From assembly GCA_903827955.1 (NCBI GenBank), contig CAIKKJ010000034.1, positions 2,946-66,945 of the forward strand: a stretch of 64,000 bases of DNA, written 5' to 3'. How positions within the stretch are numbered: the first letter of the stretch is position 1; each line of letters starts with the position of its first letter. The notes under the pieces were generated by a model that saw only the letters and a list, made by a program, of their open reading frames with translations, had not been told where the DNA came from and searched no databases. A program made the translations under genes and the position numbers. Origin of the DNA: an uncultured Verrucomicrobia subdivision 3 bacterium. Its GTDB lineage: Bacteria > Verrucomicrobiota > Verrucomicrobiia > Limisphaerales > UBA11358. This document shows positions 1 through 22,800 of this stretch, piece after piece.

Positions 1-164
1 TCACCAGCGAGCGTGCGATTGCGAAGCACCTGCGTCATCGCCTTGTGACCCGCCACACGGCGAAAGCTGCCATCATCCAACAGCACGGGATTAGATTTCG
101 CCCAGGCGTTCCAAGCACGGCGCTGGTCGCGATTCAATTTTTTCCATTCGGTCGATAATTTCAT
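1..164 (-). CDS. hypothetical protein, N-terminal part only (continues beyond window start)
   Basis: ATG at 164-162 overlaps the stop of the upstream portal gene (ATGA at 161-164). Frame is open to position 1 (MKLSTEWKKLNRDQRRAWNAWAKSNPVLLDDG...). No family recognised. Confidence 0.4.
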   Translation of the reverse strand, partial: MKLSTEWKKLNRDQRRAWNAWAKSNPVLLDDGSFRRVAGHKAMTQVLRNRTLAG

Positions 165-1747
165 GGCGTCGTTTGTGGTTGTGCCGGAGGCGTTGCTACG
201 GGCGGGGTAGTGCCAGCATTAGGAAGACCCCCGGTCTGTTTCTCCTGACCGTTTTGAAAATTGCCCGTGCGGCTCGCACTGGGTTGTCCAGCTTTGACGA
301 GATTCTTTTCTTCATCATCCGTGCGTCCAGTGGGCAGGACTTCACCTTTACGGAAGAGATCAAACATGGTGGCCTGAGAGATGGCTCCAGCCTGCCAGGC
401 CGAGACGATGGCAGTGAGTTCCAGACTGGTCAGACCTTTGGCGGTGAAGTCAGTATTGATCTGGAGCAGGACGAGAGATTCACTGATGTCTTCGGGATAC
501 TGTTCAGTGGAGTTCCACCAATAGACCCAGCGAAGGACTTGGCTGATGGAGTCAGAGACAGACAAAGCCAGTGTCATCAAGATGCTATTCTCACCAGCTT
601 GACGGAGTTCAATGGCATCAGCAGTTTCACCGACACGTTTGGTGTCTTCCAGCATCCGGGAGCCGAGGACAGCCATGAGCCGTTCATCACGGTTTTGAGC
701 ATTCTCAAAGGTGGACAGACCATGACCTTTGAATTCAAGGAAGCCGGCGACAGCACCGACCGTGTCCGAGACCCAAGCCGTGCTGCTGCCGATGCGTAGC
801 TCCGAAGTTTTATCAAAGCCAGCGACCCAAGCGGTAGGCAGAGCAGTGAAGTGCAAGCCATGCTTGTAGTCAGCATCCAGACGGTAGTGATCCAGATTGA
901 CGGAGATGATGTCAGCCAGCGGCATCTTGTCCACGTCGGGCAGTGCGTTGCGTGGACCATGAAAGACAAAGGGAATCAGCGGCAGCGTTTTGCCCAGGCG
1001 GAGCGGCACACGGCTTTCCACCAGCGTCCATTTGGTCTTGGCTTGGCTGGCCTTTTGGCCGGGCCAGAAATTACCCATCCAAGAGGATTGGCTGTTCGCA
1101 CGGTGGCCGTCCGCAAGGACTTGCCAGACTTCGACAACGTAACGAGTGCTACCATCGGGCAGCACTTCCAACTTCAGCACGCGCACCGTTTCCGTAATTT
1201 TCACGGCGAACGGATCAGCATCGTCGGGACGTTCCACCATTTCACGGAGCGCCACCATCGTAACCACGTTGCGGCCATTGATGCGGGCAGCTTGCCAATT
1301 CAAAATATCCTCGGCGGCATAGCGGACAACATAAGCACGAGATTCACCATCGGCCTGCCAATCAATCAGCGTGCCACAGCGACCCACAGCAAGGACTTCA
1401 CCGACGACACCCTTGCAGAAAGTGAAGAGCGACGTGCCCATCAAATCCACGTCATCGGTGAAGACACGCAAGGCACCACCGACACCAGCATGGCGGTCAG
1501 GAAGTTTCACTTCGGGATCACGACGAAAGAGCAAACCGAGGAAGCCATCACAGGTGCGCGACGTGGCATTAAAGAAACAAGCACGGGATTTGTAGCCGAG
1601 ATAATCGTCATCCGTTTGGGAATCCAGACGAGGGAGATACATGATGCCACCAAGTTTCACGGCATCTTCACCAGCGATGACATCACGGGCGCGAAGCCAG
1701 GCAGGCAGGCTTGCGTCGTAATCAGGATGTGTCGAGTTCGCTGGCAC
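161..1747 (-). CDS. phage portal protein (DUF4055-like portal family), copy 1
   Basis: 528-aa ORF with GTG start. Roughly 55-60% identical by eye over its full length to ORF 14035-15558, which sits in portal-scaffold-capsid order. Shared blocks: STHPDYDAS..AW.RARDV.AGEDAVK, HYRL.ADYKHG.HFTALPTAWV.GFDK, SAWQAGAISQ.TM. Family name is from memory, not searched. Confidence 0.75.
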   Translation of the reverse strand: MPANSTHPDYDASLPAWLRARDVIAGEDAVKLGGIMYLPRLDSQTDDDYLGYKSRACFFNATSRTCDGFLGLLFRRDPEVKLPDRHAGVGGALRVFTDDVDLMGTSLFTFCKGVVGEVLAVGRCGTLIDWQADGESRAYVVRYAAEDILNWQAARINGRNVVTMVALREMVERPDDADPFAVKITETVRVLKLEVLPDGSTRYVVEVWQVLADGHRANSQSSWMGNFWPGQKASQAKTKWTLVESRVPLRLGKTLPLIPFVFHGPRNALPDVDKMPLADIISVNLDHYRLDADYKHGLHFTALPTAWVAGFDKTSELRIGSSTAWVSDTVGAVAGFLEFKGHGLSTFENAQNRDERLMAVLGSRMLEDTKRVGETADAIELRQAGENSILMTLALSVSDSISQVLRWVYWWNSTEQYPEDISESLVLLQINTDFTAKGLTSLELTAIVSAWQAGAISQATMFDLFRKGEVLPTGRTDDEEKNLVKAGQPSASRTGNFQNGQEKQTGGLPNAGTTPPVATPPAQPQTTP

Positions 1748-1920
1748 GCGGCGACTCTAGCACGGGATTTTTTTGCAATCGGATCACCCCAAAACTCACG
1801 ACTGCCAGAAGATGCCACACGCTGTCACACACCGTCACACGCTGCCAAACAAATTTCTCATTCCCGATTGACGATTATTTTATTTCTCCCGTCGGCAACG
1901 CGCGGCCGTGATGGCAGCAC

Positions 1921-2330
1921 AAAGTTAGTTCGCTGCGCTCAACAAAAATATCAGTTCGCGCTTTGCTCTGCGTCGCGCTCAACAATGACGAATCGCGCTC
2001 AAGTTCACGGTTTCCATTGTTCACGTTGTGCGGAGGTTTTATTGCTCGCTCTGCTCGGAGAATTGAGCCGCACATCAGGCGCGCACGCGGACGCCTGACG
2101 CTCATGCTCGGCAGTCCAGCGGCAGCCCGCTAAAGCGGTCTGCCACTGGCCATGCCGAGCACCGGCACGCCTTCATCGGCTCACGAGTGCCAACTTACGG
2201 CGTGCCTTTCGCTCCATCGCGTGCGCGTAGCACGGTTCAGGTTCGCGAATGTTAACGGCGCGCTTCATCATTCAGGTTCGCCACGCAACGGCGCGCTGGC
2301 AGGCATCGAACCCTCGTCGCTTCGCTCCTC
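1921..2330. repeat. copy A of a three-copy structured non-coding element (candidate ncRNA or att-associated element)
   Basis: Colinear with 4348-4850 and 16986-17388. Starts AAAGTTAGTTCGC. Contains paired segments 2075-2081/2092-2098, 2106-2113/2153-2160, 2116-2125/2140-2149, 2127-2130/2135-2138 and 2164-2171/2199-2206. No conserved ORF. Confidence 0.8.
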
Positions 2331-2395
2331 GACTGTGGTAAATGTATTCGCCGCACATTATGCGGCGATTAAGGCCCCAATTCACCGCACGCATC

Positions 2396-2426
2396 ACTTG
2401 ACTGATAACTTGACTGACACTTGACT
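2396..2426 (+). promoter_or_regulatory. three direct repeats of ACTTGACT (starts 2396, 2408, 2419)
   Basis: Period is 11-12 bp and each unit contains the -35-like hexamer TTGACT. Located between repeat copy A and the HEPN gene. Function (operator, iteron or promoter) is not determinable from sequence. Confidence 0.35.
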
Positions 2427-2555
2427 CATCTTTCTTCGGCTGACGGCGTGACCATATTGCCGCCAGCGATGGTTTCTGTTGCAGACATCATCGGTTTCCG
2501 TGATTCTGTGCCTGACCATAAAACTTTTCGGCTGAAGTTAGCGGGTGATCCATTT

Positions 2556-3095
2556 ATGTCGCGTGCATCCAACACATTTCTCGAAGCCATCAAGGACGCG
2601 GAAATCCTGCTCGCACAATTCGATGCCATCAACACGAAGCCGCCACCGCCCCACGCCGAGGTTCTAAAACGCGCCGGACTCATCATGGCTCTTACCGCCT
2701 GGGAAACTTACGTCGAAGACCGGGCTGCTGAAGCGCTGGAAGAACGCATCAAGGCTTTGTCTGGCAGTCCTTTTGCGGATTTGATCAAAAAGAAATTCCA
2801 GAAAGATTTGAAGCGCTTGAACAATCCCAACTCCACCAAGACCTGCAATTTGTTCATGGACTATTTGGGCATGGATATCGCGCAGCATTGGACCTGGACC
2901 AACATGGACGTGAAGATGGTGAAGCAGCGGCTCGACGACCTGCTTGCGAAGCGTGGCAGCGCGGTGCATCGCTCCAAGGCCGCGGCCGCCAGCCCTCAGA
3001 ATGGTCATTTGGTGAAGCGCGAGGAACTCGACAAGGGCATCAAGTTTTTGAAGACGCTGGTGGAGCGAAGTGAAAAGGCGTTCACTTCCGCCTGA
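2556..3095 (+). CDS. HEPN-domain protein (RiboL-PSP-HEPN-like)
   Basis: ORF is open from TTG 2421, but third-position GC rises only after ATG 2556. KRGSAVHRS fits the HEPN Rx4-6H motif. The WETYVEDR helix resembles RiboL-PSP-type HEPN proteins (recollection). Confidence 0.55.
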   Translation: MSRASNTFLEAIKDAEILLAQFDAINTKPPPPHAEVLKRAGLIMALTAWETYVEDRAAEALEERIKALSGSPFADLIKKKFQKDLKRLNNPNSTKTCNLFMDYLGMDIAQHWTWTNMDVKMVKQRLDDLLAKRGSAVHRSKAAAASPQNGHLVKREELDKGIKFLKTLVERSEKAFTSA

Positions 3096-4257
3096 CTTCA
3101 CTCAAGCTTTCGCCGGGCGTCAGGTGCGCCGGCTCTTCGAGGATGTCCAGCAGGGCATTGGCGCAATACACGCGACCACGTTTAGCGTCACCGACTTGCT
3201 TCACGATTTTCAACCGTTCCAGCCGTTCGATGGCGCGTTGCGCCGTGGTAAAGGCAAACCCCAGTTTTTCCGCCGCACCCTTCGCGGTGATGAACGGATT
3301 CGAGGCCAGCAGTTCCACCACGCGCAGCGGCGCGTGGGTGGAGTCGCCGGAGACTGTTTTCTGCCACTCGGCCAGCAGGGCGTTCATGCGGGTCGCCCGG
3401 CTCAAGGCGTCTTCCGACATGCGGGCCACGCCGAGCAGGAAGTATTCGAGCCATTCATTCCATTCGCCCCGCTCGCTGACACCCCGAAGCCCTTCGTAAT
3501 AATCGCGACGCGCCTCTTCAAAAAATGCTGAAAGATACAGCAGCGGTGTCGGCAGGATGCCGCGTTCGATCAGAAAGAGCGTGATGAGCAAACGCCCCAC
3601 GCGGCCATTGCCGTCAAGGAATGGATGAATGGCTTCGAATTGGTAGTGTGCCAGCGCAACGGTCACCAGTGGCGGCAGATCGGAGTCATGCACAAACTTT
3701 TCCCACGCCGCCAGGCAGGGCTCGATTTCAGCCGGTGGTGGCGGCACAAACGAGGCTGTCTCCGGCGTGCTGCCCGGTTTGCCGATCCAGTTCTGGATTT
3801 TGCGGAAGCGTCCGGGCATGGCCCGTTCGCCGCTGACACCGGTCATGAGTTTTTCATGCAGCTCCCGGATGATGCGGATGCACAGCGGCAGATCCTTCAG
3901 GCGCTTGATGCCATGTTCCAGCGCGATGACGTAGTTTCCCACTTCCCGCAAATCTTCGGGACTGCGTTCCACGACCGCGCCGGCTTCCGCCGCCAGCATT
4001 TCGCCGAGCGTCGCCTGTGTCCCTTCAATCTTGCTCGATAGCACGGCTTCCCGTTTTACGAATGGACGCATCAGCACATGCGGATTCGGCAGACGACCGC
4101 CTTCCCCCGCCAGCTTCCCAACCAGACGATCCGCCTCCGACAACACCCGCATCAGCCGCGGAGTCCAGATGATCTTCGGCGGCAAGGGTGCCGGCACAAA
4201 GGCGGCATATTTGCCCAGCGGCACTTTGCGTCCAGGAATGTTTAATTTGCTGGCCAT
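3082..4257 (-). CDS. Fic family protein (AMPylase-type, with N-terminal inhibitory motif and C-terminal wHTH-like tail)
   Basis: HPFLDGNGRVGRLL matches the Fic motif HxFx(D/E)GNGRxxR. SSKIEG matches the inhibitory (S/T)xxxE(G/N) motif. ATG 4257 (MASKLNIPG...) is preferred over the ORF opening at 4302. The 3' end overlaps the HEPN gene by 14 nt, convergently. Confidence 0.85.
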   Translation of the reverse strand: MASKLNIPGRKVPLGKYAAFVPAPLPPKIIWTPRLMRVLSEADRLVGKLAGEGGRLPNPHVLMRPFVKREAVLSSKIEGTQATLGEMLAAEAGAVVERSPEDLREVGNYVIALEHGIKRLKDLPLCIRIIRELHEKLMTGVSGERAMPGRFRKIQNWIGKPGSTPETASFVPPPPAEIEPCLAAWEKFVHDSDLPPLVTVALAHYQFEAIHPFLDGNGRVGRLLITLFLIERGILPTPLLYLSAFFEEARRDYYEGLRGVSERGEWNEWLEYFLLGVARMSEDALSRATRMNALLAEWQKTVSGDSTHAPLRVVELLASNPFITAKGAAEKLGFAFTTAQRAIERLERLKIVKQVGDAKRGRVYCANALLDILEEPAHLTPGESLSEVRRK

Positions 4258-4273
4258 AACGTTGCTTTCGGTC

Positions 4274-4302
4274 GTGATAATAGCACAACCTGCTATTATC
4301 AC
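4274..4302. promoter_or_regulatory. perfect 12-bp inverted repeat GTGATAATAGCA-caacc-TGCTATTATCAC upstream of fic
   Basis: Read directly from the sequence. Lies 17 nt upstream of the fic ATG (4257). Operator-like geometry. Confidence 0.5.
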
Positions 4303-4347
4303 AAAAGCACAAATACGCTAATAGCGGGATTCCTTGTTTTCACGGCT

Positions 4348-4850
4348 AAAATTGAGTTCGCTGCGCTCGACAGAATTTAAGTTCGCGCTGCACTTCGCTC
4401 GCGTGCTCAACAGGAGAACACGAACGCGCTCGGATTCACGGTCTCCACGCTCGAACGTTGTGCGGAGTAATGTTAGATCGCTCCGCTCACAGAATTGTCC
4501 CGCACATCAGGCGCGTGCGCGGACGCCTGACGCTCATGCTGGCGGCGGCGGCTAACGCCACCGCTACGCCAGCACCGGGCCGCCTTCACAGGTTTACGAA
4601 TGGTTTCTCACGGCGGCCCTTTCGCTTCCGCGCGCACGCGTCGAACGTCGCAGGTCATCGAACGGTTTCCGCGCGATCCAACCATTCGGGTTGGCGGATG
4701 ATTTAAGCGCGCGGCCAGGCGGGGAAAAGTTAGTGGATTGCTGACTCGTCGCTGTCGCTCCTCGCGGGGGGCGAACGCGCACTGCGTTTGCGGTCGCCTT
4801 TTTGTTTTCAGAGGCCGCGAGGCTTCGCCACGGCCAAGACACAGCAATAT
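4348..4850. repeat. copy B of the three-copy structured non-coding element
   Basis: Starts AAAATTGAGTTCGC. Paired segments: 4460-4465/4500-4505, 4507-4513/4524-4530, 4538-4552/4557-4573, 4577-4584/4612-4619, 4628-4635/4707-4714. Shares an extra 3' block (CGCGAGGCTTCGCC...CAGCAATA) with copy C only. Confidence 0.8.
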
Positions 4851-6020
4851 CACGCCCAGGCCGGCGGCTTGGGCGTGCCGGCCATGCAACAGTTCCCGGC
4901 TGTCACAGAGCGGACACTTGCGCTCGTGCCTCGCGCCAAGTATCCGCACTGTTCGGCCCGCGCCCGTGACGGACTCGTCAGTTTGCGCCCAAGCTGCCCG
5001 CCGGCTGTTATTGATGTCACGCACCACCAAAGCGATGGAACTTGCCATGTTGGTCAGCTCACAAATCTCCCCGTCCCCTGGTCTCATTTGATCCAGCCAA
5101 GCCCGCAAATTATCATGAACGGGCACAATTCGACGACTGGCCGTCTTTGATTTGGTGACGCGCACTACCACGTAATCTTTTGCCAATTGCAGGTCCGCCC
5201 ACTCCAGCCGTTGGAGTTCCGCATGGCGCACGCCCGCAAAAGCCCCGATCACCATGAATGGCTTAATCCGCTCCGGCGTGAAGCAAAGAATTTCAACCAG
5301 CTCTGCCGGCGTGAAAAATTCGGTTTCCGTCGGCGGCTCTTTGATCGCCGGCACCGCGCATAATTCGTCATGGTCCCGGGGCAAATACCGCCGCCGCATG
5401 GCGTATATGAATAATGAATTGATGGCCTTGCGCAGGTTGTTTTGCGAACACGCCCCCACACCTAGTCCCCGCAGCCACTCATTAATTTCAGGCCCGCGAA
5501 TATCGGTGATGTTCCCCTTGAACCGCTTTGTGAATTGTCCCAAGGCATGGCGCATGGACTTGATATAGCTGTCGGTCAGCAACGCCTCGTCTTTTGAATT
5601 CAGCAACTCCTCCACCACGTCCGCGACGGGCATTTTCAATCGGCCCGGTGCCCACTCCAGAAAGTAATCCACAGCCTCGTGCAAATGCACTGTGCCCAAT
5701 TTCTTCATGGCCTCCGCATACTCCATCGCCGCCGACTGGACACTCACGCCGAGCGGATCCAGATAGAACCGTGCCGCTTTATAGTCCAGCCGGTCGTTGG
5801 GACTTAATTCGAGCACGAGCCCCTCCTGCTTGTCCAATTTACCAGCTACAAATCTGGCCTCTTTTTTAGCTTTTTCAAAATCAGAAAAAACCGTCCGCTT
5901 GCGCATCCTGCCCAGATAATAACTGACAAAATAATCCACCCGTCCCTTATTCATGCAGCGATAGATTTTAACCTGCACGGAGCCTTTTTGGATCACGACT
6001 GGAAATGTTTCATCGTCCAT
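4608..6020 (-). CDS. tyrosine recombinase/integrase, probably 3'-truncated (reading frame runs into repeat copy B)
   Basis: ATG 6020 (MDDETFPVVIQKG...). Catalytic Arg box AFAGVRHAELQRLEWADL and beta-hairpin Lys (VTKSKTASRRIVPV) are present. No HxxR...GH...Y block follows. The last ~90 codons are antisense to repeat copy B and look non-protein-like. Confidence 0.6.
   Translation of the reverse strand: MDDETFPVVIQKGSVQVKIYRCMNKGRVDYFVSYYLGRMRKRTVFSDFEKAKKEARFVAGKLDKQEGLVLELSPNDRLDYKAARFYLDPLGVSVQSAAMEYAEAMKKLGTVHLHEAVDYFLEWAPGRLKMPVADVVEELLNSKDEALLTDSYIKSMRHALGQFTKRFKGNITDIRGPEINEWLRGLGVGACSQNNLRKAINSLFIYAMRRRYLPRDHDELCAVPAIKEPPTETEFFTPAELVEILCFTPERIKPFMVIGAFAGVRHAELQRLEWADLQLAKDYVVVRVTKSKTASRRIVPVHDNLRAWLDQMRPGDGEICELTNMASSIALVVRDINNSRRAAWAQTDESVTGAGRTVRILGARHERKCPLCDSRELLHGRHAQAAGLGVILLCLGRGEASRPLKTKRRPQTQCAFAPREERQRRVSNPLTFPRLAARLNHPPTRMVGSRGNRSMTCDVRRVRAEAKGPP
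4770..4808 (+). terminator. candidate intrinsic terminator inside copy B
   Basis: GGCGAACGC (4770-4778) pairs with GCGGTCGCC (4790-4798) with one mismatch, followed by TTTTTGTTTT. This segment is an insertion specific to copy B. Confidence 0.45.
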
Positions 6021-6150
6021 GCTTGATTTTACAACGCCGCAACCTCTTTTGCAGCCTGTCCCCAGCACTGGGGACAAGACGAAAATTCCCGCTGTGTTAA
6101 TCTAAAGTCGTTGGGAGTAGTGACCCAACCGAAAAACAAGTGTTGAAGAA

Positions 6151-7658: not shown

Positions 7659-9326
7659 TCAGCCTTTCAGCAACTTCAGCAATCGCTTCTTGTCCTTCTG
7701 ATTCTTCTTGCCCGTCATACCCTCGATAATTTTCCGCATCTCCGCTTTCTGTTTATCCGCCTCGGCCTCGGTTGCAAGTGGCGCCGCCACCGACACGACC
7801 TTTTCTTCCTCCGCCCCATAGGTCAGCAGCGCCGGCATTGCCTTGTTCAGCGCCGTTCGGAACGCCTCGCGCCCCGGCTGGAAATAATGTTTCAGCACAA
7901 TGTCAGTCGTCTTGTGCCCTGTCACCTTCTGCACCAGTTCCAGCGCCACCCCGGCCGTCAGCGCCAGCGTCACCCACGTCACGCGGAAGCTGTGGAAATC
8001 CCGCACGCTCGCCGATCGCAAGCCATGTTTCCGTTCCACATACAAACCGGCTTTTTCCATGCCGTCTTTCACGCTGTCGCCTTTGTTCGCGTGGCTGGAG
8101 CCGCGCACAATCAGGCACCCGATGGCCTGTTCAATCTCGTTGAGATAACCCGAGACGCTGCCTTTGCTCACATTGACCGCCGCCATTACAGATTGGATGT
8201 TGTTACCATCCATGTAGTGCCGGAACACCATCGCCATCCGGGATCGTTTCTCGCCTTCCGGCAACGCCGCGATGTATTTCTCGCCTCGCTCCCGCGCCAG
8301 CGCGTCGGAAACTTCCGGCAACGCTTTCGTTTCTTCCCCCGCCTCCACTGGTTTTCTGAGCCCCACCGCCAGAATCTTTTTCACGCGCCAGGTGATGCCA
8401 TCCGGGTTTTCATCATACATCTCCGCTTGGTCAGGAAAAACATAACCGGTGAGTTTCGGCCCTGCCTCTTTTGCCAGCTTTTTCAGCTCCGCTGCCAGCA
8501 TGGGGAAAATGGGGATGCTAACGGTCTGACCGGTCTTCGAGGTTTTTACCGTGATGAAATGGTTTTTCAAATCCACATCCTTCCATTCCAGCAGACAACA
8601 ATCCCCGCGCCGCATGGCGGTGCACATTCCCGTGATGATGATCGGCCGAATGAAATCATCGTCCTTCGCCGCCTCATTGATTGCCCCCAGTTCTTCCGGC
8701 GAGAATGGCTGGCGAAACACAGTTTCCGTTTCCTTCGTCGGTGTGTCGGCAAAATGGTTGATGGCGCCCGCCGGCAGCAGATGCTTAAAAGTTGCCCGTA
8801 GCAGCTTGAGCGTGTCATTCCAGGTTTTGCCCGTGACGTGCCGCCCAGCCTCCTCGTCCAGAAAAGACCGGGCCATCGTTCCCGTAACGAAGGCGATTTC
8901 GACCACCTTGGGATTTTTCTTCTGCACGAATTCTACAAACCGGTTTAAGGTGGATTCGCACTGCTTCGCGTAGCGGGCATTCGGCGCTCGTCGCCGCGCA
9001 ATCTTCCCCCATTCCGCCGCTAGGTTTTCCAACTTCACCGACTTGATGGTTTCTCCAGTCTCATGCTCATACAATTTCTTTATCAAACGCACCGCCCCCT
9101 GTTTTGAGCGCGCCTCCTCGACGATTTGATTCAGCTTCGCTTGGGCGGCAACGCGCGAACATTCAAACGCCGTGTCGCCCGCTTCTTTCAGCGATTGGGA
9201 TTGCGGAGGCGTGCCGGCGATTTTAACGCCGAGATTGGCGCAGAATCGTTTGCCATTAATTTCATAACGGCCATACCAGAAGGGACGCAGTTGGCCGCTT
9301 AATTTCCATCGCAATTCGAGGGGCAT
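7659..9326 (-). CDS. tyrosine recombinase/integrase (phage integrase family) with a long insertion in the catalytic domain
   Basis: Catalytic signature is complete: R (TAMRRGDCCLLEW), K (VKTSKTGQTV), HSFRVTW, TGHKT, KHYF. A ~150-aa insert with an HTH-like segment lies between the K and HxxR boxes. Confidence 0.85.
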   Translation of the reverse strand: MPLELRWKLSGQLRPFWYGRYEINGKRFCANLGVKIAGTPPQSQSLKEAGDTAFECSRVAAQAKLNQIVEEARSKQGAVRLIKKLYEHETGETIKSVKLENLAAEWGKIARRRAPNARYAKQCESTLNRFVEFVQKKNPKVVEIAFVTGTMARSFLDEEAGRHVTGKTWNDTLKLLRATFKHLLPAGAINHFADTPTKETETVFRQPFSPEELGAINEAAKDDDFIRPIIITGMCTAMRRGDCCLLEWKDVDLKNHFITVKTSKTGQTVSIPIFPMLAAELKKLAKEAGPKLTGYVFPDQAEMYDENPDGITWRVKKILAVGLRKPVEAGEETKALPEVSDALARERGEKYIAALPEGEKRSRMAMVFRHYMDGNNIQSVMAAVNVSKGSVSGYLNEIEQAIGCLIVRGSSHANKGDSVKDGMEKAGLYVERKHGLRSASVRDFHSFRVTWVTLALTAGVALELVQKVTGHKTTDIVLKHYFQPGREAFRTALNKAMPALLTYGAEEEKVVSVAAPLATEAEADKQKAEMRKIIEGMTGKKNQKDKKRLLKLLKG

Positions 9327-9464: not shown

Positions 9465-9522
9465 TAAGCTCGTCAGGCTCATAACCTGAAGGTCGTTGGT
9501 TCAAATCCAGCCCCCGCAACCA
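9465..9522 (+). tRNA. tRNA-Met (CAT) 3' fragment: anticodon arm, variable loop, T arm, acceptor 3' strand and CCA; the 5' acceptor strand and D arm are missing
   Basis: Anticodon stem TCAGG/CCTGA (9473-77/9485-89), loop CTCATAA. T arm GTTGG-TTCAAAT-CCAGC (9495-9511). CCCCGCA-A-CCA ends at 9522. The required 5' strand TGCGGGG is absent upstream. Confidence 0.65.
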
Positions 9523-9681: not shown

Positions 9682-10305
9682 TCACTTCATTTCTTTGTTC
9701 GCATCTGCCAAACCGCGTAATTGGCCGTGACGATGAGCAAAAAACCAAAGGCCAACCGCCGCAGCAACAGCGCCCAAAATCAAAAGCTCGTTACCGACGA
9801 TCAGCGACGGAAGCACCATAAGCGCAATGCCGCCGGCCAGAATTGCAACGCTCGTCGTCACGCTGCCGATGATGACTTGCAACGGAGGATAAAAGATGGA
9901 CGCCAGGCCGAACAGGAACATGGCGACGCCGACCCAAACAATTCCCTTGAGGCTCGCCAGCTTTGCGCTCAATTCGCGCGCCGTGTCTTTTTGAGCCGCG
10001 CCCAATTCCGTCTTGGCCCGCGTTTCTTCATGCTCGACGACCGGCATCGGCGCGCTGACAACCACCACTTGGTTGCTGGCGGACTCGAGCCGCGAACCGG
10101 CCGGCACGGTGTAGCTCCGCGTTTTCACCGTCTCTTGATCCTGCCGCGAGGCTTGCGCCGGGTTGTCGCCTTGCACGACGGTTTGACCGATGACACCGGA
10201 CGTGGAGGCGCGGCCACCCTTCAACGGAGCCAGATTGCAGCCGCAGAGCAAACCCGCCGCCGCGATGACAGCAATATCAATCAGCACAAATTTGGTTTTC
10301 GACAT
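9682..10305 (-). CDS. membrane protein, lipoprotein-like N-terminus, three C-terminal TM helices
   Basis: N-terminal AAGLLCGC lipobox-like signal and hydrophobic C-terminal third. Last gene of the head-module operon. Confidence 0.5.
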   Translation of the reverse strand: MSKTKFVLIDIAVIAAAGLLCGCNLAPLKGGRASTSGVIGQTVVQGDNPAQASRQDQETVKTRSYTVPAGSRLESASNQVVVVSAPMPVVEHEETRAKTELGAAQKDTARELSAKLASLKGIVWVGVAMFLFGLASIFYPPLQVIIGSVTTSVAILAGGIALMVLPSLIVGNELLILGAVAAAVGLWFFAHRHGQLRGLADANKEMK

Positions 10306-10307
10306 AA

Positions 10308-10628
10308 TTATTTTCCTTCCTGAAATCGGCGCAGTTCAAACGCGCAGTCATTAAGCGCCGCCGTGTTGTGGTCAATGCAGACGGCCAACTTCATCGCCGT
10401 CTCATTTTGCTTTTCGATGATTTGCGTCAGGGCCGCATGATGCTCGTCGCGCAACGCCTTGTGATCCGAAATCACGGTTTGAAGCTGTTGCACCAGCCAA
10501 TAAATCACCACGCCGCAAACGAGCAGCAGCAGGCAAAACGCCGCGAGAAACAACCAGCGGTCATTCATGCTGGCAGCGTGATCCACCGCTTGGAGAAAAT
10601 CGGCCGTGTTCATATTGGTCATATTCAA
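10308..10628 (-). CDS. small membrane protein (one TM helix + coiled coil)
   Basis: 106 aa. Has the WLFLAAFCLLLLVCGVVIYWLV helix. Start overlaps the stop of the upstream gene by 4 nt. Confidence 0.5.
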   Translation of the reverse strand: MNMTNMNTADFLQAVDHAASMNDRWLFLAAFCLLLLVCGVVIYWLVQQLQTVISDHKALRDEHHAALTQIIEKQNETAMKLAVCIDHNTAALNDCAFELRRFQEGK

Positions 10629-11179
10629 ACGCGTTGCAGTCGCACCATGCCGCTGGTCGCGCTCATCGGCACACCGTATTTCGCCAGCATCACCTGCGCG
10701 ACTTGCGACAAGACCGGACGGCGATCCGTTTTGTCGTAACCGGTTTGGTTGCCACCGGTGTTTTGATATTTCAATCCCTCACCGGCAGGCGCGGCGGTGC
10801 GGTCGGCAATCAAAAGTTCCCGCGCCATTTCACACGTCGCCTGGACAACGGCTTTCGGCACGCTGTCGAAGCGAACGTAATCCGATGGAATCGGCAGCAA
10901 CGCTTGCAGCGGGACATGAATCGCATCGGGTTCAGGACACCGGGCGCGAGGCCATTGCAAACCTTGCACGGCGTTCGCGCGCGTGCCGTTGAACTGAAAT
11001 TCCGCGTCAACCAACCGCGACGCCATCACGAGCGCCACGGCCTTTTGAGCGTCCGTCGCCGCCGTCCATGCCGAGGCGTAAAGATGGCCGTCGTGATAGG
11101 CGTTGCCATCGGTCAAGTCCGCGTAAGCGTTGGCATCCACCAATCCCGCGCCGGTTTCTTTGATCAGGGTGAGCGACAT
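10625..11179 (-). CDS. phage head-tail adaptor-type protein (DnaT-like / gp6-like family)
   Basis: Pattern ANAYADL..GNAY......AWTAATDAQKAVALVMASRLVD..F.F.G.......LQWPR is as I remember it for this phage family. Lies in the capsid operon. Confidence 0.5.
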   Translation of the reverse strand: MSLTLIKETGAGLVDANAYADLTDGNAYHDGHLYASAWTAATDAQKAVALVMASRLVDAEFQFNGTRANAVQGLQWPRARCPEPDAIHVPLQALLPIPSDYVRFDSVPKAVVQATCEMARELLIADRTAAPAGEGLKYQNTGGNQTGYDKTDRRPVLSQVAQVMLAKYGVPMSATSGMVRLQRV

Positions 11180-11188
11180 AAAGTTTAG

Positions 11189-11845
11189 CTAAATGACCGC
11201 AGACCAAGGCGACCAGACGCCGGCCACCTGATAACAGCAGGTGCAGCTTCCAAATTGCTGCGCGCTTTGCGCCTGTGTCGGCGATAAAACATCGTAGGCA
11301 GCGTTCGACTGATCCGCGCTGTCCGCCCAGCCCTGTATGGAACCGGAACCGTCATAGCCGCCATCGTTTTGAGCGAATCGCCAAACGCTCGTAGCCACCG
11401 GCGCGGTGCCCAAGAAATAACCGCCCACGCTCACCAAAGTGGGAGCATCCAGTGGCGCAGGAGCATCGCTCGGATGCACCGCGTTACTGTGTTGAGTGAT
11501 TTCCTTGCCGTCCGCGTCCACGCCGACGATGTAATGTAGTTCCTCGCCATCCGGCGCAAACTGCCGCGCATCGCCATACATCCAATAGCCGGTCGGCAGG
11601 AAATAAGTCGCGCCGCCGTCGAGACTCAGCCAGACATTCCATTTGTAAGGATTCGGCAAGTCCCAATCCCATTGCAGCAAGTCAGGCCAAGCCGCGCGCA
11701 AGACAGGCGGCGGCAACAAATGTCCTTTGCGCCGTTGCTCCGCCAGCCATGTCCGCCGTTGCAGCGGCGTCCAGGGCGCGTTACGGCGCGGCGGTTTTGG
11801 CAGGGCTTGCGACATCGTCAGGCTTGGAAATTTTGGCCGGTTCAA
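11189..11845 (-). CDS. hypothetical phage protein
   Basis: 218-aa ORF in the head operon. Start uncertain (alternative ATG at 11815). No family recognised. Confidence 0.45.
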   Translation of the reverse strand: MNRPKFPSLTMSQALPKPPRRNAPWTPLQRRTWLAEQRRKGHLLPPPVLRAAWPDLLQWDWDLPNPYKWNVWLSLDGGATYFLPTGYWMYGDARQFAPDGEELHYIVGVDADGKEITQHSNAVHPSDAPAPLDAPTLVSVGGYFLGTAPVATSVWRFAQNDGGYDGSGSIQGWADSADQSNAAYDVLSPTQAQSAQQFGSCTCCYQVAGVWSPWSAVI

Positions 11846-11960: not shown

Positions 11961-12188
11961 TCAGATCGCGTTAGCGCCGATGGCAATTTGTTTCCAGTTT
12001 GTGCCGTCCGAAATGGCGAGGCACGGCACGGAGCCAGTGCCGCCAACGGACAGATAGATCATGCGGCGCGGAAATTTCGCCGCCGTGACGCCAGCAGCGA
12101 CCGCCGCCGCGACGTTGGTAAATGTCGGAATCTGGATTTGTTCACCCGAACGAATCCGCTCGAAACTGCGAGGTTGAAGTTTGCCCAT
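11961..12188 (-). CDS. small hypothetical phage protein
   Basis: ATG 12188 (MGKLQPRSFERIRSGEQIQIPTF...) avoids overlap with the capsid gene. 75 aa. Confidence 0.45.
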   Translation of the reverse strand: MGKLQPRSFERIRSGEQIQIPTFTNVAAAVAAGVTAAKFPRRMIYLSVGGTGSVPCLAISDGTNWKQIAIGANAI

Positions 12189-12238
12189 AATTTTAATTGG
12201 TAAAGCGGCGTGCCGGCGCGAACCGGCACGCCAATGGT

Positions 12239-13249
12239 TCAGATGTTGTGTGTCACGGCCACGACCGGGACGTTTTTGTTTTCCCACACGCGCACCCAGT
12301 TGGCGGCGGTGGCCAGTTCAGCGTTGGTCGGATTTGCACCGGCCACGCTCGCGCTGGTGAACTTCACACCGCGAGGGTGCAGGATGAAGCGGCGACGATT
12401 GACGAGGAACGTGTCGCTGTTGAGAGCGTCACGCGCCATTTCCATGCCTTCCGTGCCGTGACCGCCTTCGACAGGCGCACCGTTCAGATCGGCAAAGCCC
12501 ATACCGAACGCACCGTTGCCGAATAGATAGGTCGTATAGACCACGCCGTCAGTCGTGCCAGCGCGCGACGGGCAGCCGTCATCCACGATGACCCGACGGC
12601 CTTGGAACGTCTTGATTTGAGTTTCACCCTGGCTGTCCGGGATAAAATCAATCAGGTCGAGCTTGCGCAGCGCGGCTTCCACTGCGGAGTGCATCGCCAC
12701 GGCCACGAGCCGGTCGCCACGGTCGCCGAGGCGTTGCGTCGCATCCACGAAGGTTGCGCCGTTAAGCCGGGTGGCCGAGGTTTGCGCCGCGACGCTTTCG
12801 GATTGGATCGCCAACAGATTGCCCGCCATGCTCGCCGCACCGAAAACGCCGGTGAGGGAGTTGATGAGCATATACTGGTTCTGACGGTTCCAGTAATCGG
12901 CGATAAAGTCCGCCAGCGCCAGCGCCGGATCGTCACCGGCAACTTGCGTCGCCAGATGATTCCACGACCACGCATTGCCGTCGTTGTGGATGCGGGCGAT
13001 GTCCTGGTCAGCGACCAGTTTCGCCGGCACGAGCGGTGCCGAATCGGAAAGCGGCTGGCGGTTGCCCGTCAGATCATTCCAGTGGGGCATGTTGACTTGC
13101 GTGCCGCCGAGGGCCGCGCGCTCGTCATAGTCCGGCGTGCGGATGACAATGCCGGATTGAAACAGGTCGGATTTTTCCGCCGTGCGTTGAAGGACGTAGC
13201 CAGCGAATTGCGCTGGCACGATGATGTCTGCAAGTTGTGTCTTTGCCAT
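12239..13249 (-). CDS. major capsid protein (HK97-fold, N4-gp56/T7-like type)
   Basis: 336 aa, directly after the scaffold gene. The N-terminus MAKTQLADIIVPAQFAGYV resembles this capsid family (recollection). Confidence 0.7.
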   Translation of the reverse strand: MAKTQLADIIVPAQFAGYVLQRTAEKSDLFQSGIVIRTPDYDERAALGGTQVNMPHWNDLTGNRQPLSDSAPLVPAKLVADQDIARIHNDGNAWSWNHLATQVAGDDPALALADFIADYWNRQNQYMLINSLTGVFGAASMAGNLLAIQSESVAAQTSATRLNGATFVDATQRLGDRGDRLVAVAMHSAVEAALRKLDLIDFIPDSQGETQIKTFQGRRVIVDDGCPSRAGTTDGVVYTTYLFGNGAFGMGFADLNGAPVEGGHGTEGMEMARDALNSDTFLVNRRRFILHPRGVKFTSASVAGANPTNAELATAANWVRVWENKNVPVVAVTHNI

Positions 13250-13272: not shown

Positions 13273-14028
13273 TCACGCGGCGGCTTTCAAACGGGCAGCC
13301 AGCGCAGGATCGGTTTTCTGCAATTTCATTTGCTCCGTGAGATTCCACGTTTCCTTGCGGAACGGGTTTTTCGCGGACCGGTTGCCAGCCCCACCGGAGC
13401 CGGAGCCGGCAGCACCGCTGCCAGCGTTTGCTTCAAACAGGTGCGGCGCGTCGGACACCAACGCATCCACCCATTCGGCCAAAGTCAAAGCAGCCGCGCC
13501 GTCCTTGCCCGTGCGGGCAGTCTGGCCGTCGGCCTCAAAAGCCTGCGGCACGCCGTTGACGAGCTTGAACGTCTGGCGAGCACGCGAAGTGATGTCAGGA
13601 ATCGCCGTCGGCCGCAGACCACGTTTCGTGGCTTCGGTCACGACGGCTTGATCAATCTGAATTGCCGACAAGCGGCCAAGCAGCGTGTCACGCTCGCCGG
13701 TCACGGCGGAAAATTGTTTGTCCCAATCCGTCTTGGCCGTCTTGAGCCGCGCGTCCAAGACCTCTTGAAATTTGCCGTCCTTCAGCCGTTGTTCATCTTC
13801 CAAACGCTGCTTGTCGGCGGCGAGCTGACGCACGGCGTCAGGGTCAATGCCTTCAAACTTCTTGAGCTGGTTCGTCAGCGTGATGTTGTTCTGGCGGAAC
13901 TCATCCAGCTTGGTTTGACTCACGACGCCATCGGCATCCAGCACGAACGCACCGTCGCGCTCGACGTAAAAGGATTGATGTTCAGCAGGGATTTCCTGCT
14001 TCGTTGCATATTTGAATTTCAGGGGCAT
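13273..14028 (-). CDS. phage scaffolding protein
   Basis: 251 aa, lying between portal and capsid. Charged coiled-coil middle, Gly/Ser-rich segment and basic C-terminus. Confidence 0.65.
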   Translation of the reverse strand: MPLKFKYATKQEIPAEHQSFYVERDGAFVLDADGVVSQTKLDEFRQNNITLTNQLKKFEGIDPDAVRQLAADKQRLEDEQRLKDGKFQEVLDARLKTAKTDWDKQFSAVTGERDTLLGRLSAIQIDQAVVTEATKRGLRPTAIPDITSRARQTFKLVNGVPQAFEADGQTARTGKDGAAALTLAEWVDALVSDAPHLFEANAGSGAAGSGSGGAGNRSAKNPFRKETWNLTEQMKLQKTDPALAARLKAAA

Positions 14029-14034
14029 AAACTT

Positions 14035-15558
14035 TTAATTCACGGTTACAGGGTTGGCGTTCACATCACCGGGAACCGTCGGCGTGACGGGAACAGTTGG
14101 TTTGGTTTTCTTCTCGCTGGCGAGCAAGGCTTGCTCTTCTTCGTTCGTGCGACCGGGAGCGATGACCTCGCCAGCACGGAACAGGTTGAGCATCGTGTCC
14201 TGACTGATGGCGCCAGCTTGCCACGCGGAGACGATGGCGCTGATTTCCTGATACGTCATGCCAGCGAAATTGAAATCCGTGTTCAGGCTGGCAAGCACGA
14301 GGTCCGCACCGATGGCGTCAGGAATCGGCTCGGTCGAGTTCCACCAATAGACCCAGCGAAGCACCTGCGTCAGCGACGCGCTGACGCTCAAGGAAATGGT
14401 GTTCAAGATGGAGTTCTCGCCAGATTGACGGAGTTCGATGGCGGCAGCGGTTTCACCGACACGCTTGCGGGATTCGAGCATCCGCGTGCCGAGGACGGCC
14501 ATCAGTTGCTCGTCACGATCCATCGCACGCTCAAAGGTGGACAGACCTTGACCGTGAAATTCCAAGAAGCCAGCCGTGGCACCAGGAGTTTCCGCGACCC
14601 ATGCCGTGCTGCTACCAATGCGCAGCGTCGAAGCCTTGTCAAAGCCACTCACCCAAGCCGTCGGCAGGGCGGTGAAGTGCATACCATGCTTGTAGTCGGC
14701 ATTGAGACGGTAGTGATCGAGGTTGACGGCGATGATGTCTTCCAGCGGAATCTTGTCCACGTCAGGCAGCGAGTGACGCGGGCCGTGAAAGACAAAGGGA
14801 ATCAGCGGCAGAGATTTTCCAAGACGCAGCGGCGTGACGGTTTCAATCAGCTTCCATTCGAGACGTGTGCGAGCACGTTGACCGGAGGTGACGGGATTCT
14901 TGGGCAGCTTGCGCCAGACATCCACTTGATAAGTCCAATCAGTTTGCTCGTCGTTGCTAGACGATTGCGAAGGGACGAGTTTCAGGACGCGCAGTTGCGG
15001 GTAGGCAGTCGGACAGAAGGAGTCAGTGACCGAGGCAGTGTCTTGAAAAGTTTCTTGCAGGACTACCAGCGTCAGGACGTTGCGACCATTCACGCGCTGC
15101 GTCTGCCAGTTGATGATGTTTTCAGCAGCGTAGGCGACAGCATAGGCGCGTGGTTCAGTCTCGTTGTTCCAGTCAATCAGCGTGCCAGCACGACCGACGT
15201 TGATGATTTCCGTGACGAGCTTCTTCGAGAAGGCAGTCAGTGGCGTGCCAAGCATATCGGCATCGGCGACGAACTCAGCAAGCGAAGAACCGACACCGTT
15301 GGACTTGTCGGGCAGTTTGAAGGTTGGATCACGACGGAAGACCAGACCGACGAAGCCATCAGCCGTGCGAGCAGAAGCGTTGAAGAAAGAAGCACGGTTT
15401 TTGTAAGCGAGATATTCCTTGTCGTCCTGACAGTCCAGACGTGGCAGATACTTTTCAGCAGCAGCTTTGACGGCATCCTCACCGGCGAAGACATCACGGG
15501 CACGTTGCCATGCAGCGATGCTGGCGTCGTAATCAGGATGTGTCGAGTCCACTGGCAC
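14035..15558 (-). CDS. phage portal protein (DUF4055-like portal family), copy 2
   Basis: 507 aa with GTG start. Paralogue of 161-1747. First gene of a portal-scaffold-capsid operon. Confidence 0.8.
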   Translation of the reverse strand: MPVDSTHPDYDASIAAWQRARDVFAGEDAVKAAAEKYLPRLDCQDDKEYLAYKNRASFFNASARTADGFVGLVFRRDPTFKLPDKSNGVGSSLAEFVADADMLGTPLTAFSKKLVTEIINVGRAGTLIDWNNETEPRAYAVAYAAENIINWQTQRVNGRNVLTLVVLQETFQDTASVTDSFCPTAYPQLRVLKLVPSQSSSNDEQTDWTYQVDVWRKLPKNPVTSGQRARTRLEWKLIETVTPLRLGKSLPLIPFVFHGPRHSLPDVDKIPLEDIIAVNLDHYRLNADYKHGMHFTALPTAWVSGFDKASTLRIGSSTAWVAETPGATAGFLEFHGQGLSTFERAMDRDEQLMAVLGTRMLESRKRVGETAAAIELRQSGENSILNTISLSVSASLTQVLRWVYWWNSTEPIPDAIGADLVLASLNTDFNFAGMTYQEISAIVSAWQAGAISQDTMLNLFRAGEVIAPGRTNEEEQALLASEKKTKPTVPVTPTVPGDVNANPVTVN

Positions 15559-15695
15559 GAGCGGACTCTAGCACGGGTTTTACAACGATTTTGCCTGACC
15601 CAAAAGACTCACTAGACGGCTGCTGACACAAGATGTCAGCAGATGACCGATGCAGACGGTTTTTTTAAGATTTTGTATTTGACGGGTTTCAAGAT

Positions 15696-16727: not shown

Positions 16728-16985
16728 TTTGTTTGTGGCGTTTCGGTTCAAGCTGCGAACGATTAGGATAGCACAATTCGCGATGTTGTCTTTAAGCATT
16801 TCGACGATTCAATTTTCGGCAGCAATCGAGAAGTTTGGTTTAAGATTTTTTCATCTTTTGACCCCGGTAATTTTTTTGCGTGTGATAATTCGTGAGACTT
16901 TTATTTTTCGACACGGGCGACCAGATGAAGTTGTGTGTCGTGGGCAATGTGAATGTTTGTGGTAATTCGGATGCGCTCGAAAGAC

Positions 16986-22749: not shown

Positions 22750-22800
22750 CAAACCCGAGCCGTAAAAGGTGATTGGCCGGAGGCGAATCGTCAATGCGAA

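Follow-up and report, generated by a model that had tools for sequence, protein, structure and literature searches.

Two diverged portal genes and a conserved structured RNA gene in probable capsid-encoding islands of Verrucomicrobiota

Portal genes and head modules

The window, a 64,000-nt stretch of one contig (C34) from a Verrucomicrobia genome, contains two portal genes, each followed by further head genes, that were assigned to two neighbouring islands (island 1 and island 2):

161-1747, minus strand: portal-1, 528 aa, GTG start, island 1 (PF13264, DUF4055, 1.6e-36)
1-164, minus strand: 5′ part of o200, a 200-aa accessory ORF whose remainder lies left of the window
14035-15558, minus strand: portal-2, 507 aa, GTG start, island 2 (PF13264, 2.9e-38; phrog_145, 4e-116)
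13273-14028, minus strand: scaffolding protein, island 2 (phrog_206, 2.6e-39)
12239-13249, minus strand: major capsid protein, island 2 (phrog_247, 1.8e-92)
9682-10305, 10308-10628, 10625-11179, 11189-11845 and 11961-12287, minus strand: island-2 head-completion genes, assigned by synteny in relatives
10625-11179, minus strand: head-tail adaptor Ad1, one of these genes (phrog_477, 1.2e-28; PF20557)

The PF13264 scores of portal-1 and portal-2 (125.9 and 131.6 bits) lie far above the curated cut-off of 25, the phrog_145 alignment spans residues 3-490 of portal-2, and both are, as judged from these matches, DUF4055/phrog_145 portal proteins. As the first-pass annotation had proposed, they are intact, diverged paralogues with GTG starts: both ORFs are uninterrupted, and the proteins are 61% identical over 495 aa. 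The start codon of each is the first GTG past an in-frame stop, and protein conservation extends from residue 1 on. In the portal tree, portal-1 belongs to a clade of 19 rows and portal-2 to one of 22 rows, each with 100% support. The shared start region that the first-pass annotation had pointed out is not distinctive, as the nucleotide identity of the two genes is 0.79 at the 5′ end, below the 0.84-0.85 of the DUF4055 core. The genome contains four portal paralogues, and the repeat described below lies upstream of every one.

The stop codon of portal-1 (TGA, 163-161) overlaps the ATG of o200 (164-162), and the predicted ATGA coupling of portal-1 to the next ORF was, thus, borne out at 164-161. 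The o200 product has no match in PHROGs; homologues are found between portal and scaffold genes in the related loci L046-L048 and L080. It had also been claimed that the genes downstream of the two portals differ, a view that was not sustained when the analysis was extended to the left. The contig continues for 2945 nt beyond the window, and there the scaffold and major capsid genes of island 1 come after o200, each 64% identical to its island-2 counterpart, so that portal-1 is also backed by scaffold and capsid genes, with one extra ORF between.

The portal leaders

A common leader before both portals was confirmed, with 19 of the 25 nucleotides directly upstream identical in the two genes, compared to 14 of 35 in the next stretch. 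The elements of the two leaders are as follows:

1748-1774, minus strand: portal-1 leader, with TG (1762-1761), TAGAGT (1759-1754), a 6-nt spacer, C at -1 and then the GTG; A-tract at 1768-1774
15559-15582, minus strand: portal-2 leader, with TG (15573-15572), TAGAGT (15570-15565) and C at -1

The motif TGnTAnnnT, ending exactly 6 nt before the start codon, was found in 45 of 53 portal genes with a GTG start, compared to one of 39 with an ATG start; T at -7 and C at -1 are present in all 53 of the former. We infer that the leader would act as an extended -10 promoter from which transcription begins at the GTG, producing a leaderless portal mRNA. A scan for two-hexamer sigma-70 promoters returned nothing at the portal leader, because the scan demands a -35 hexamer.

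A structured RNA gene divergent from the portals

Upstream of each portal lies a copy of a repeat that appears to be a conserved structured RNA gene of about 320-450 nt, transcribed away from the portal. The window contains three copies:

1919-2345, plus strand: RNA copy A, pointing away from portal-1, whose start is 173 nt distant
4347-4803, plus strand: RNA copy B, with a terminator-like hairpin and T-run at 4781-4803
16915-17345, plus strand: RNA copy C, including an upstream block of about 70 nt common to most family members; host genes lie 3′

The placement that the first-pass annotation had described, with copy A beginning 173 nt from portal-1 and copy C standing beyond a nuclease gene before portal-2, was reproduced. 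A full-length comparison of copies A and B gives 71% identity. In an alignment of 55 sequences, 94.6% of cells were paired, compared to 83.1% in shuffles, and compensatory double changes occurred at 24 of 40 pairs. The covariation score of 0.267 compares with 0.091 for shuffled alignments (none of 500 shuffles reached the observed value), and slid controls gave at most 0.078. The fold includes conserved unpaired stretches, and the 5′ part of the RNA has three hairpin-like GUUCGC...GCUCAAC motifs. A hairpin-terminator with a T-run lies 3′ of the repeat on the RNA-sense strand. Counts of G-U versus C-A pairs were 28 versus 6 on seven sequences, a ratio biased by the fold, and were balanced on 55 sequences (one pair with 23 G-U, another with 22 C-A). 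The strand and the ends given for the RNA gene are predictions. Rfam 15 gave no match to the RNA when the window was searched at the gathering score or when copies A and D were searched with E-values as high as 5, and ARAGORN likewise gave none.

Further copies of the RNA were sought with nhmmer profiles. Of the loci ascertained by the portal, 54 have 3 kb or more of sequence upstream, and in 40 of these the RNA is found on that side; it stands upstream of a portal in 15 of 24 flanked metagenome loci ascertained by the RNA, and in all five IMG/VR contigs picked by an RNA pattern. The co-occurrence of the repeat with this portal family, which the first-pass annotation had made the test of its proposal, is therefore real, and the arrangement was found again in dozens of other genomes. 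Where the two are paired, the RNA is always divergent, 0.1-3.4 kb upstream of the portal, and in minimal cases the distance is 115-175 nt. About a third of the RNA copies lack a neighbouring portal, among them the remaining 9 of the 24 RNA-ascertained loci, and 14 of the 54 portal loci, including one clade with five of five, have no RNA. Two portal subclades keep the order TerS-TerL-portal-scaffold-capsid without a detectable RNA, one in five of five members and another with five lacking and one carrying the RNA. One genome of the genus (G035) has 13 RNA matches on eight contigs versus four portal matches. The unit of repeat and portal is best read as gene order conserved within one family of islands; adjacency this close and persistent would also be expected from a functional link.

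As far as sampled, the RNA is known only from Verrucomicrobial islands and their remnants. Both RNA and portal are missing from 30 of 41 genomes of the genus; because the RNA is absent from these genomes, it is not a host core gene, and the idea of a host core RNA gene used as attB was ruled out. In a comparison of empty-site synteny for contig C196, which carries copy E, a 330-aa flank gene had no homologue at E <= 1e-20 in 20 relatives, and the GH28 gene is multi-copy.

A cargo hotspot between the RNA and the portal

A hypervariable hotspot, in which accessory and defence genes collect, would be bounded by the RNA gene and, at its other border, by the conserved promoter and 5′ end of the portal gene. 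The gaps between RNA and portal contain 78 ORFs in 61 clusters, mostly singletons, with Pfam matches to AIPR, SRAP, PD-(D/E)XK nuclease, DNA methylase, Kinase-PolyVal, UDG, AAA ATPases, Endonuclease_NS, Fic and HEPN. Such a hotspot would account for the nuclease gene before portal-2 and for the HEPN and Fic genes that separate copy A from copy B:

2421-3095, plus strand: HEPN RiboL-PSP cargo protein (PF18735, 9.8e-22)
3082-4302, minus strand: Fic/DOC cargo protein with wHTH; an 88% identical Fic lies between two RNA copies in locus L048
15696-16799, minus strand: secreted DNA/RNA non-specific endonuclease, cargo (PF01223, Endonuclease_NS, 3.8e-47); a 68% identical homologue occupies the same place in locus L018

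The hotspots of satellites and prophages (P2/P4, PICI cargo regions; see also PMC10085698) are similar in having a fixed site between core genes, at which variable, defence-type genes are swapped among relatives. Unlike the P2/P4 and PICI hotspots, one anchor here is a non-coding RNA gene, and one clade has the RNA on both sides of the cargo.

Island architecture and attachment sites

The canonical island would be inserted at the 3′ end of a tRNA gene, with the order int ... TerS-TerL-few small genes-RNA (opposite strand)-variable cargo-portal-scaffold-capsid-adaptors-tRNA. The order TerS-TerL-RNA(-)-cargo-portal was observed in IMG/VR contigs, in many MAGs, and on contig C200 of the same genome, where the terminase genes match phrog_6299 (TerS, 4.8e-20) and phrog_979/PF03237 (TerL). 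Contig C200 has a 23-nt tRNA-Gly fragment (15356-15378) after the h9682 gene, and an intact tRNA-Gly gene with an integrase 39 kb away (53.4-54.8 kb); the intact tRNA, the 3′ direct repeat and the tyrosine integrase inside that characterize a tRNA-targeting island are, thus, all present. Twelve relatives carry an intact tRNA gene no more than about 2 kb past the head module and, where mapped, 0.1-0.4 kb past the h9682 homologue. The genes found also include integrases and one for an 89-aa HTH_17 protein; no primase-replicase gene was recognised. Several islands per genome are common, and tandem or multiple islands also occur in closed chromosomes.

The corresponding features of the window are as follows:

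9467-9522, plus strand: 3′ fragment of tRNA-fMet, 56 nt, matching the intact gene of contigs C5 and C152 at 100% identity
7659-9326, minus strand: tyrosine integrase (PF00589, 1.1e-12; phrog_1, 1.1e-35), adjoining the tRNA fragment at the attR end of island 1
4608-6077, minus strand: tyrosine-integrase ORF with integrase homology at residues 44-332 only, its C-terminal part running antisense through RNA copy B

The 56-nt fragment, which lies beside the integrase gene at 7659-9326 and where relatives carry an intact tRNA gene after the h9682 homologue, is the attachment-site junction of islands 1 and 2. The window would, then, hold two islands in head-to-tail order at tRNA-fMet, joined at 9467-9522 and both having lost the terminase side, and portal-1 and portal-2 would be the opening genes of the head operons of islands hosted by Verrucomicrobiota (Limisphaerales). 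TerS and TerL are missing from both window islands, and because of this the copies are probably decaying. The ORF at 4608-6077 is probably a truncated integrase, since its homology stops at residue 332 and its C-terminal part is antisense to RNA copy B. The notion of integrases that target the RNA was rejected, as most tblastn matches to residues 438-489 of this ORF are antisense-translated RNA. Contig C5, which carries a head-module end together with the intact tRNA-fMet gene, shows no sequence overlap with the left end of contig C34.

Taken with their head genes, the two portals probably represent two diverged, decayed copies of a tail-less, capsid-encoding (cfPICI-like) island of Verrucomicrobia. 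It is considered likely that the portals, the leader promoter, the RNA gene and the hotspot are together the conserved synteny of one island family, a reading that makes no appeal to a physical partnership of RNA and portal.

Alternative explanations

The repeat copies might instead be attL and attR sites bounding portal elements, such that their adjacency to portals only marks element ends. Copy C abuts host genes and copy E has host-like genes 5′, copies B and C enclose 12 kb with integrases, and doubled copies flank cargo, all of which would be expected of such sites. This reading is, nevertheless, highly improbable, because the RNA is internal in at least 30 loci on large contigs, lying between TerS/TerL and the portal, and the real attachment sites are tRNA genes or their fragments, with the tRNA-fMet fragment standing in the middle of the interval from B to C; copies A and B, with only 71% full-length identity, are also unlike the short identical cores of recent integration. 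The attachment site of the islands is a tRNA gene and not the repeat. That the elements are ordinary tailed prophages, complete or decaying, with tail and lysis genes too diverged to be recognised and with the RNA as a gene of that phage lineage, was judged unlikely. Many ORFs have no match in Pfam or PHROGs, IMG/VR calls related contigs viral, and the loss of the terminase genes from both window islands is consistent with decay. However, in at least 12 loci the head module ends at the tRNA attachment site right past the adaptor-side genes, where tail genes normally come, and the frequency of multiple islands per genome also speaks against a tailed prophage. The att-bounded region of C200 has defence and recombination genes, and its scanned ORFs include none that is tail-like and none with a tail or lysis match in PHROGs or Pfam, while many match nothing. 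Portal-1 in an ordinary complete prophage, a finding that would have told against the proposed unit, was not what was observed. The presence of both portals on one contig could, finally, be an artefact of assembly, if chimeric contigs had been joined at the repeat or strains mixed, since the source is a MAG of 213 contigs with 3.4% contamination, in which repeats break the assembly and the ends of several contigs lie within or close to the repeat. This is scarcely plausible: at 61% identity the portals are too different to be strain variants, islands 1 and 2 meet at a tRNA fragment rather than at the repeat, and tandem or multiple islands recur in other assemblies, the closed chromosomes included, with parts of two head modules on one contig each in L047 and in L094 (same contig as L118).

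The first-pass annotation had further speculated that the RNA acts with the portal or packaging machinery. In the phi29 system, a prohead RNA (pRNA) of about 120-174 nt serves DNA that carries a terminal protein and is packaged with a single ATPase, without a small terminase. The island RNA resembles pRNA as a structured RNA encoded by a phage or island, with its gene in the packaging region. By this analogy, it could be a packaging or morphogenesis cofactor that works with the portal or terminase: its gene is embedded among the packaging and head genes, flanked by TerL and the portal and pointing away from the portal promoter, at short distances in the minimal cases; the association with the portal holds when ascertained from either side; and the fold is strongly conserved, conserved unpaired stretches included. 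Such a role was, on balance, judged very unlikely, and several results speak against an obligate one. The two portal subclades without the RNA (five of five, and five of six) still keep TerS-TerL-portal-scaffold-capsid, RNA copies occur without a portal (9 of 24) and outnumber portals in G035, and unrelated cargo genes usually stand between RNA and portal. Unlike phi29, the islands have a classical TerS and TerL terminase; the RNA is two to three times the size of pRNA and is missing from related islands with the same portal, whose N-terminus is alike in RNA-plus and RNA-minus clades. The pRNA covariance model, RF00044, gave no match over the window at the gathering score, or to copies A and D at E up to 5. 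The evidence for a pRNA-like role, thus, goes no further than synteny within one island family, and this part of the earlier proposal was set aside. GOLLD and ROOL, the large structured RNAs associated with prophages, offer another comparison; the island RNA is likewise a long, strongly covarying non-coding RNA of phage-like elements, but it is shorter and does not match their Rfam models.

Under the preferred reading, in which the unit reflects shared gene order within one family of islands, a trans-acting role is the most likely one for the RNA, as a putative protein-binding or regulatory RNA encoded by the island. A further reading, of low probability, is that the RNA is a working part of the island's life cycle rather than a passive neighbour and belongs to a new class of large, satellite-encoded RNAs that bind the capsid, portal or terminase, or a protein of a helper phage or defence system. 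It might then be, for example, a scaffold or assembly cofactor, a decoy or a timing sensor for the divergent head operon, with the GUUCGC...GCUCAAC motifs as repeated protein-binding sites.

Relation to capsid-forming satellites and significance

The islands share with capsid-forming PICIs (cfPICIs; PMC10085698) an integrase and their own TerS, TerL, portal, capsid and head-tail adaptor, along with an AlpA/Xis-like HTH protein. The cfPICI gene set (capsid, portal, adaptor, TerS, TerL) is present in the island family and on C200, and TerS and TerL are missing from the window islands. Tail and holin genes, which the same source lists as "forbidden" components of cfPICIs, were not recognised among the scanned ORFs of the att-bounded C200 region, and both kinds of island occur several to a genome and carry accessory and defence cargo. 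The differences include the host phylum, the presence of a scaffold protein with no prohead protease or HNH gene recognised, the lack of an identified primase-replicase, and the DUF4055-type portal. In the consulted sections of PMC10085698, no conserved structured RNA gene or cargo hotspot is mentioned for the TerL-portal interval of cfPICIs.

Satellites of all four families were found mostly in Proteobacteria and Firmicutes (PMC10085698, 2023). The present analysis places capsid-forming, satellite-like islands in Verrucomicrobiota, a phylum that this survey does not name for satellites. With a promoter motif placed at the start codon, a major structural operon of this phylum may be translated from leaderless mRNAs that initiate at GUG. 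The interval between RNA and portal would be a fixed address for anti-phage and accessory genes, and may be useful for defence mining in bacteria of peat, soil and lakes. The packaging module of these islands also contains a previously undescribed, strongly covarying RNA of about 400 nt, which may have a role in capsid assembly, in regulation or in conflict with helper phages.

The two portal operons and their leader

The window carries two portal genes, one in each of its capsid-encoding islands, together with a non-coding repeat of ~350-450 nt that is present in three colinear copies.

Features of the window
161-1747, minus strand: portal-1 (island 1), match to PF13264 (DUF4055)
1748-1774: leader of portal-1, TGnTAnnnT motif
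1919-2345, plus strand: repeat copy A, starting 173 nt from the portal-1 start
1928-1945, 1954-1985, 2040-2060: GTTCGC...GCTCAAC motif (columns 19-35 and 46-113 of A3, the alignment of RNA copies, plus an optional 46-nt insert)
4347-4800, plus strand: repeat copy B, colinear with A and C
9467-9522: tRNA-fMet fragment, 56 nt, 100% identity to the genome's tRNA-fMet (residues 22-77)
14035-15558, minus strand: portal-2 (island 2), match to PF13264 (DUF4055) and to phrog_145 'portal protein' (residues 3-490, 4e-116)
15559-15582: leader of portal-2, TGnTAnnnT motif
15696-16799: secreted Endonuclease_NS gene (3.8e-47), between portal-2 and copy C
16984-17345, plus strand: repeat copy C, beyond the nuclease gene as seen from portal-2

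Both portal genes are uninterrupted and have GTG starts, as the first-pass annotation had stated; each begins at the first GTG past an in-frame stop, and they are 61% identical (495 residues). The start region that they were said to share is not uniquely conserved, since nucleotide identity is 0.79 in the first 40 codons and 0.84-0.85 in the DUF4055 core. As had been described, the stop codon of portal-1 and the start codon of the following ORF overlap (ATGA, 164-161). Contig C34 extends 2945 nt to the left of the window, and this extension, a check set beforehand, revealed more of the island-1 head operon: the coupled 200-aa gene (o200), the scaffold gene, the major capsid gene, and a homologue of ORF 11189-11845. 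The scaffold and capsid genes are each 64% identical to their island-2 counterparts. The o200 product had no PHROG match; in relatives L046-L048 and L080, its homologues likewise stand between the portal and scaffold genes. Thus, the two portals head the same operon, and the "different downstream genes" of the earlier description are reduced to one optional inserted gene.

When the upstream 70 nt of 93 portal starts were aligned, the leader common to the two portals proved to be a family-wide feature of GTG starts. The TGnTAnnnT motif, whose hexamer stops exactly 6 nt short of the GTG, was found in 45 of 53 GTG-start portals and in only 1 of 39 ATG-start portals; all 53 GTG-start portals have T at -7 and C at -1, and an A-tract lies at -24 to -21. 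The motif is also present in clades that lack the repeat (e.g., L070, L074). This geometry would fit an extended -10 promoter with a transcript beginning at the start codon, so that the portal mRNAs of Verrucomicrobial islands may be leaderless and GUG-initiated; alternatively, the motif could be a translational operator.

A structured RNA, probably divergent from the portals

The repeat is a structured RNA gene. In a 55-sequence alignment, the structure consists of 40 pairs in seven helices, including a candidate pseudoknot, with 94.6% of cells paired (83.1% in shuffles) and changes on both sides in 24 of the 40 pairs. The covariation score was 0.267 versus 0.091; none of 500 shuffles reached 0.267, slid-partner controls gave at most 0.078, and one helix had no unpaired cell among 385. 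No match to an Rfam 15 family, tRNA, or tmRNA was found. G-U counts do not decide the strand. Because a hairpin and T-run follow copies B, D, and F on the plus strand of the window (E has a weaker T-tract), and most copies have a further ~70-nt block in common on the 5′ side, we place transcription on the plus strand, which would make it divergent from the portals.

Columns 226-231 of A3 covary with 417-422 (U-A in 34 sequences, C-G in 21, none unpaired at 230/418), and this pairing crosses the closing helix 239-244/507-512, which may reflect a pseudoknot, or alternative conformers formed by the CGCG-rich segments. The 5′ part contains two or three occurrences of the GTTCGC...GCTCAAC motif, one of them split by a variable hairpin; the motif could be a repeated protein-binding hairpin or DNA site.

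Linkage of RNA and portal

The source genome is a fragmented metagenome-assembled genome (3.86 Mb, 213 contigs), in which nine repeat matches lie on six contigs. Four portal paralogues were found by tblastn (two on C34, one each on C55 and C200), each followed by scaffold and capsid genes, and each of the four has a divergent repeat copy upstream, extending what had been noted for the two in the window.

Portal-based retrieval yielded 91 loci, of which 11 are IMG/VR contigs and 80 come from genomes. Almost all belong to Verrucomicrobiota, Limisphaerales, or 'subdivision 3' genomes, often several per genome; loci of related genomes are not independent samples. The repeat profile (nhmmer) matched 62 of the 91, on the strand opposite to the portal and 0.1-3.4 kb upstream, with one exception (L094), where the plus-strand RNA copy diverges instead from a further portal fragment on the minus strand. 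Where at least 3 kb of upstream flank was available, the RNA preceded the portal in 40 of 54 loci. In the mapped loci, TerS-TerL comes first, then 2-3 kb with a conserved 209-aa gene, the repeat (opposite strand), variable DNA, portal, scaffold, capsid, three small genes, the head-tail adaptor Ad1 (10625-11179 in the window), and two more genes; the repeat thus lies inside the element, with the terminase module on one side and the head module on the other.

Ascertainment from the RNA side, with the pattern CCTGACGCTCATGC-N55-85-CCTTTCGCT, agrees with this picture. All five IMG/VR contigs found had already been retrieved through the portal. Metagenomes gave >120 stretches; among the 24 copies with at least 3 kb on the 5′ side, 15 had a divergent portal within 0.4-3.2 kb and nine had none. 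The predicted co-occurrence of the repeat with this portal family in other genomes is therefore borne out. A host core gene was ruled out: among 41 genomes of the genus, 11 carry the RNA, nine the portal, eight both, and 30 neither.

Metagenome loci L127, L130, L131, L176, L204, L141, and L164 have no portal on the 5′ side of the RNA. One portal-less subtype lacks the first 38 positions and adjoins small zinc-ribbon and secreted-protein genes. In L204, a tyrosine integrase gene lies ~7 kb upstream of the RNA, which is near the opposite end of the 9-kb contig.

Capsid islands at tRNA genes

In 12 relatives, the head module is followed within ~2 kb by an intact tRNA gene (Met in several; Gly, Leu, Ala, Cys, Thr, or Asn in others), which lies, where mapped, 0.1-0.4 kb after the homologue of the last island-2 head gene (ORF 9682-10305). 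In the window, the tRNA-fMet fragment stands between that gene and the integrase 7659-9326. On C200, the last head gene is followed by a 23-nt fragment of tRNA-Gly, and the intact tRNA-Gly stands 39 kb away, accompanied by a tyrosine integrase. Besides packaging and head genes, this interval encodes an exonuclease, an 89-aa HTH_17 (AlpA/Xis-like) protein, a QueC-like protein, a PLD-SNF2 helicase, a pair of ParB-like proteins, and a serine recombinase. Among the ORFs scanned, many of them unannotated, none matched a recognisable tail or lysis family. The elements are tRNA-targeting islands encoding capsid and terminase and, as far as can be recognised, no tail. This gene content resembles the cfPICI design described in PMC10085698.

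Island 1, which begins left of the window, reads capsid-scaffold-o200-portal-1-A-HEPN/Fic-B-integrases-attR; island 2 follows head to tail and ends at copy C beside host genes (histidine kinase, GH28, SHMT). ORF 4608-6077 (minus strand) has integrase homology only in residues 44-332, and its architecture suggests a deletion; its last ~40 codons are antisense to copy B, so tblastn 'integrase' matches beside other RNA copies mostly reflect RNA conservation. Both window islands lack TerS and TerL; they have probably decayed, or else rely on functions provided in trans. The only large terminase gene found in the genome is on C200 (PF03237; phrog_979; TerS, phrog_6299), where the repeat separates it from the portal. 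For four portal/scaffold/capsid modules there is a single recognisable TerL, so that most islands of this genome would need either to borrow a terminase in trans or to be defective. Identical tRNA-fMet genes at two contig ends (C152:38955-39031 and C5:2090-2166), one with host flank and the other with the head-module end of an island, point to a tandem array longer than the window shows. Further along the window, ORF 20575-22794 (minus strand, 739 aa) looks like a three-domain fusion of low-molecular-weight phosphatase (19-160), RpiB (184-321), and serine hydroxymethyltransferase (333-708).

The interval between RNA and portal is a cargo hotspot. Gaps >600 nt hold 78 ORFs (at least 100 aa) in 61 clusters, mostly singletons, with Pfam matches in relatives to AIPR, ATPase_2/DUF234, DUF4143-AAA, SRAP, PD-(D/E)XK nuclease, N6/N4 DNA methylase, Kinase-PolyVal, UDG-like, and DUF6448, and in the window to Endonuclease_NS, HEPN RiboL-PSP, and Fic. 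Two RNA copies bracket cargo in L048 (with a Fic 88% identical to that of the window), L092, L095, L094, L037, and the window's island 1 with C55. Short N-terminal portal fragments are common beside RNA copies and would fit recombination between two conserved anchors. Separately, ~20 kb of cargo between the AlpA-like gene and the integrase on C200 (32986-53242; L121, L122) looks like a defence island nested in a capsid island; there, the QueC-like protein has 700 aa and the helicase 1105 aa, alongside a 1418-aa protein, the ParB-like pair, and the large serine recombinase.

A proposed role for the RNA in packaging

The recurring repeat-portal unit had invited the idea that the RNA acts with the portal machinery as phi29 pRNA does. 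The unit is real, and in the portal tree the RNA is present in both of the separate, fully supported clades that contain portal-1 and portal-2. However, an obligate cofactor is difficult to reconcile with other observations. RNA-minus loci concentrate in a basal group, in which one clade lacks the RNA in five of five loci and another in five, with one locus carrying it, and both keep TerS-TerL-portal-scaffold-capsid. Some RNA copies stand without a portal, unrelated cargo usually separates the two, the islands have a classical two-subunit terminase, and the repeat has no match to the phi29 pRNA model. A pRNA-like packaging cofactor is considered highly improbable. These last four points are compatible with an accessory role of the RNA, be it in assembly, in regulation, or in conflict with helper phages; the broader reading, in which the RNA would be a functional partner of the island's morphogenesis or hijacking, is considered unlikely.
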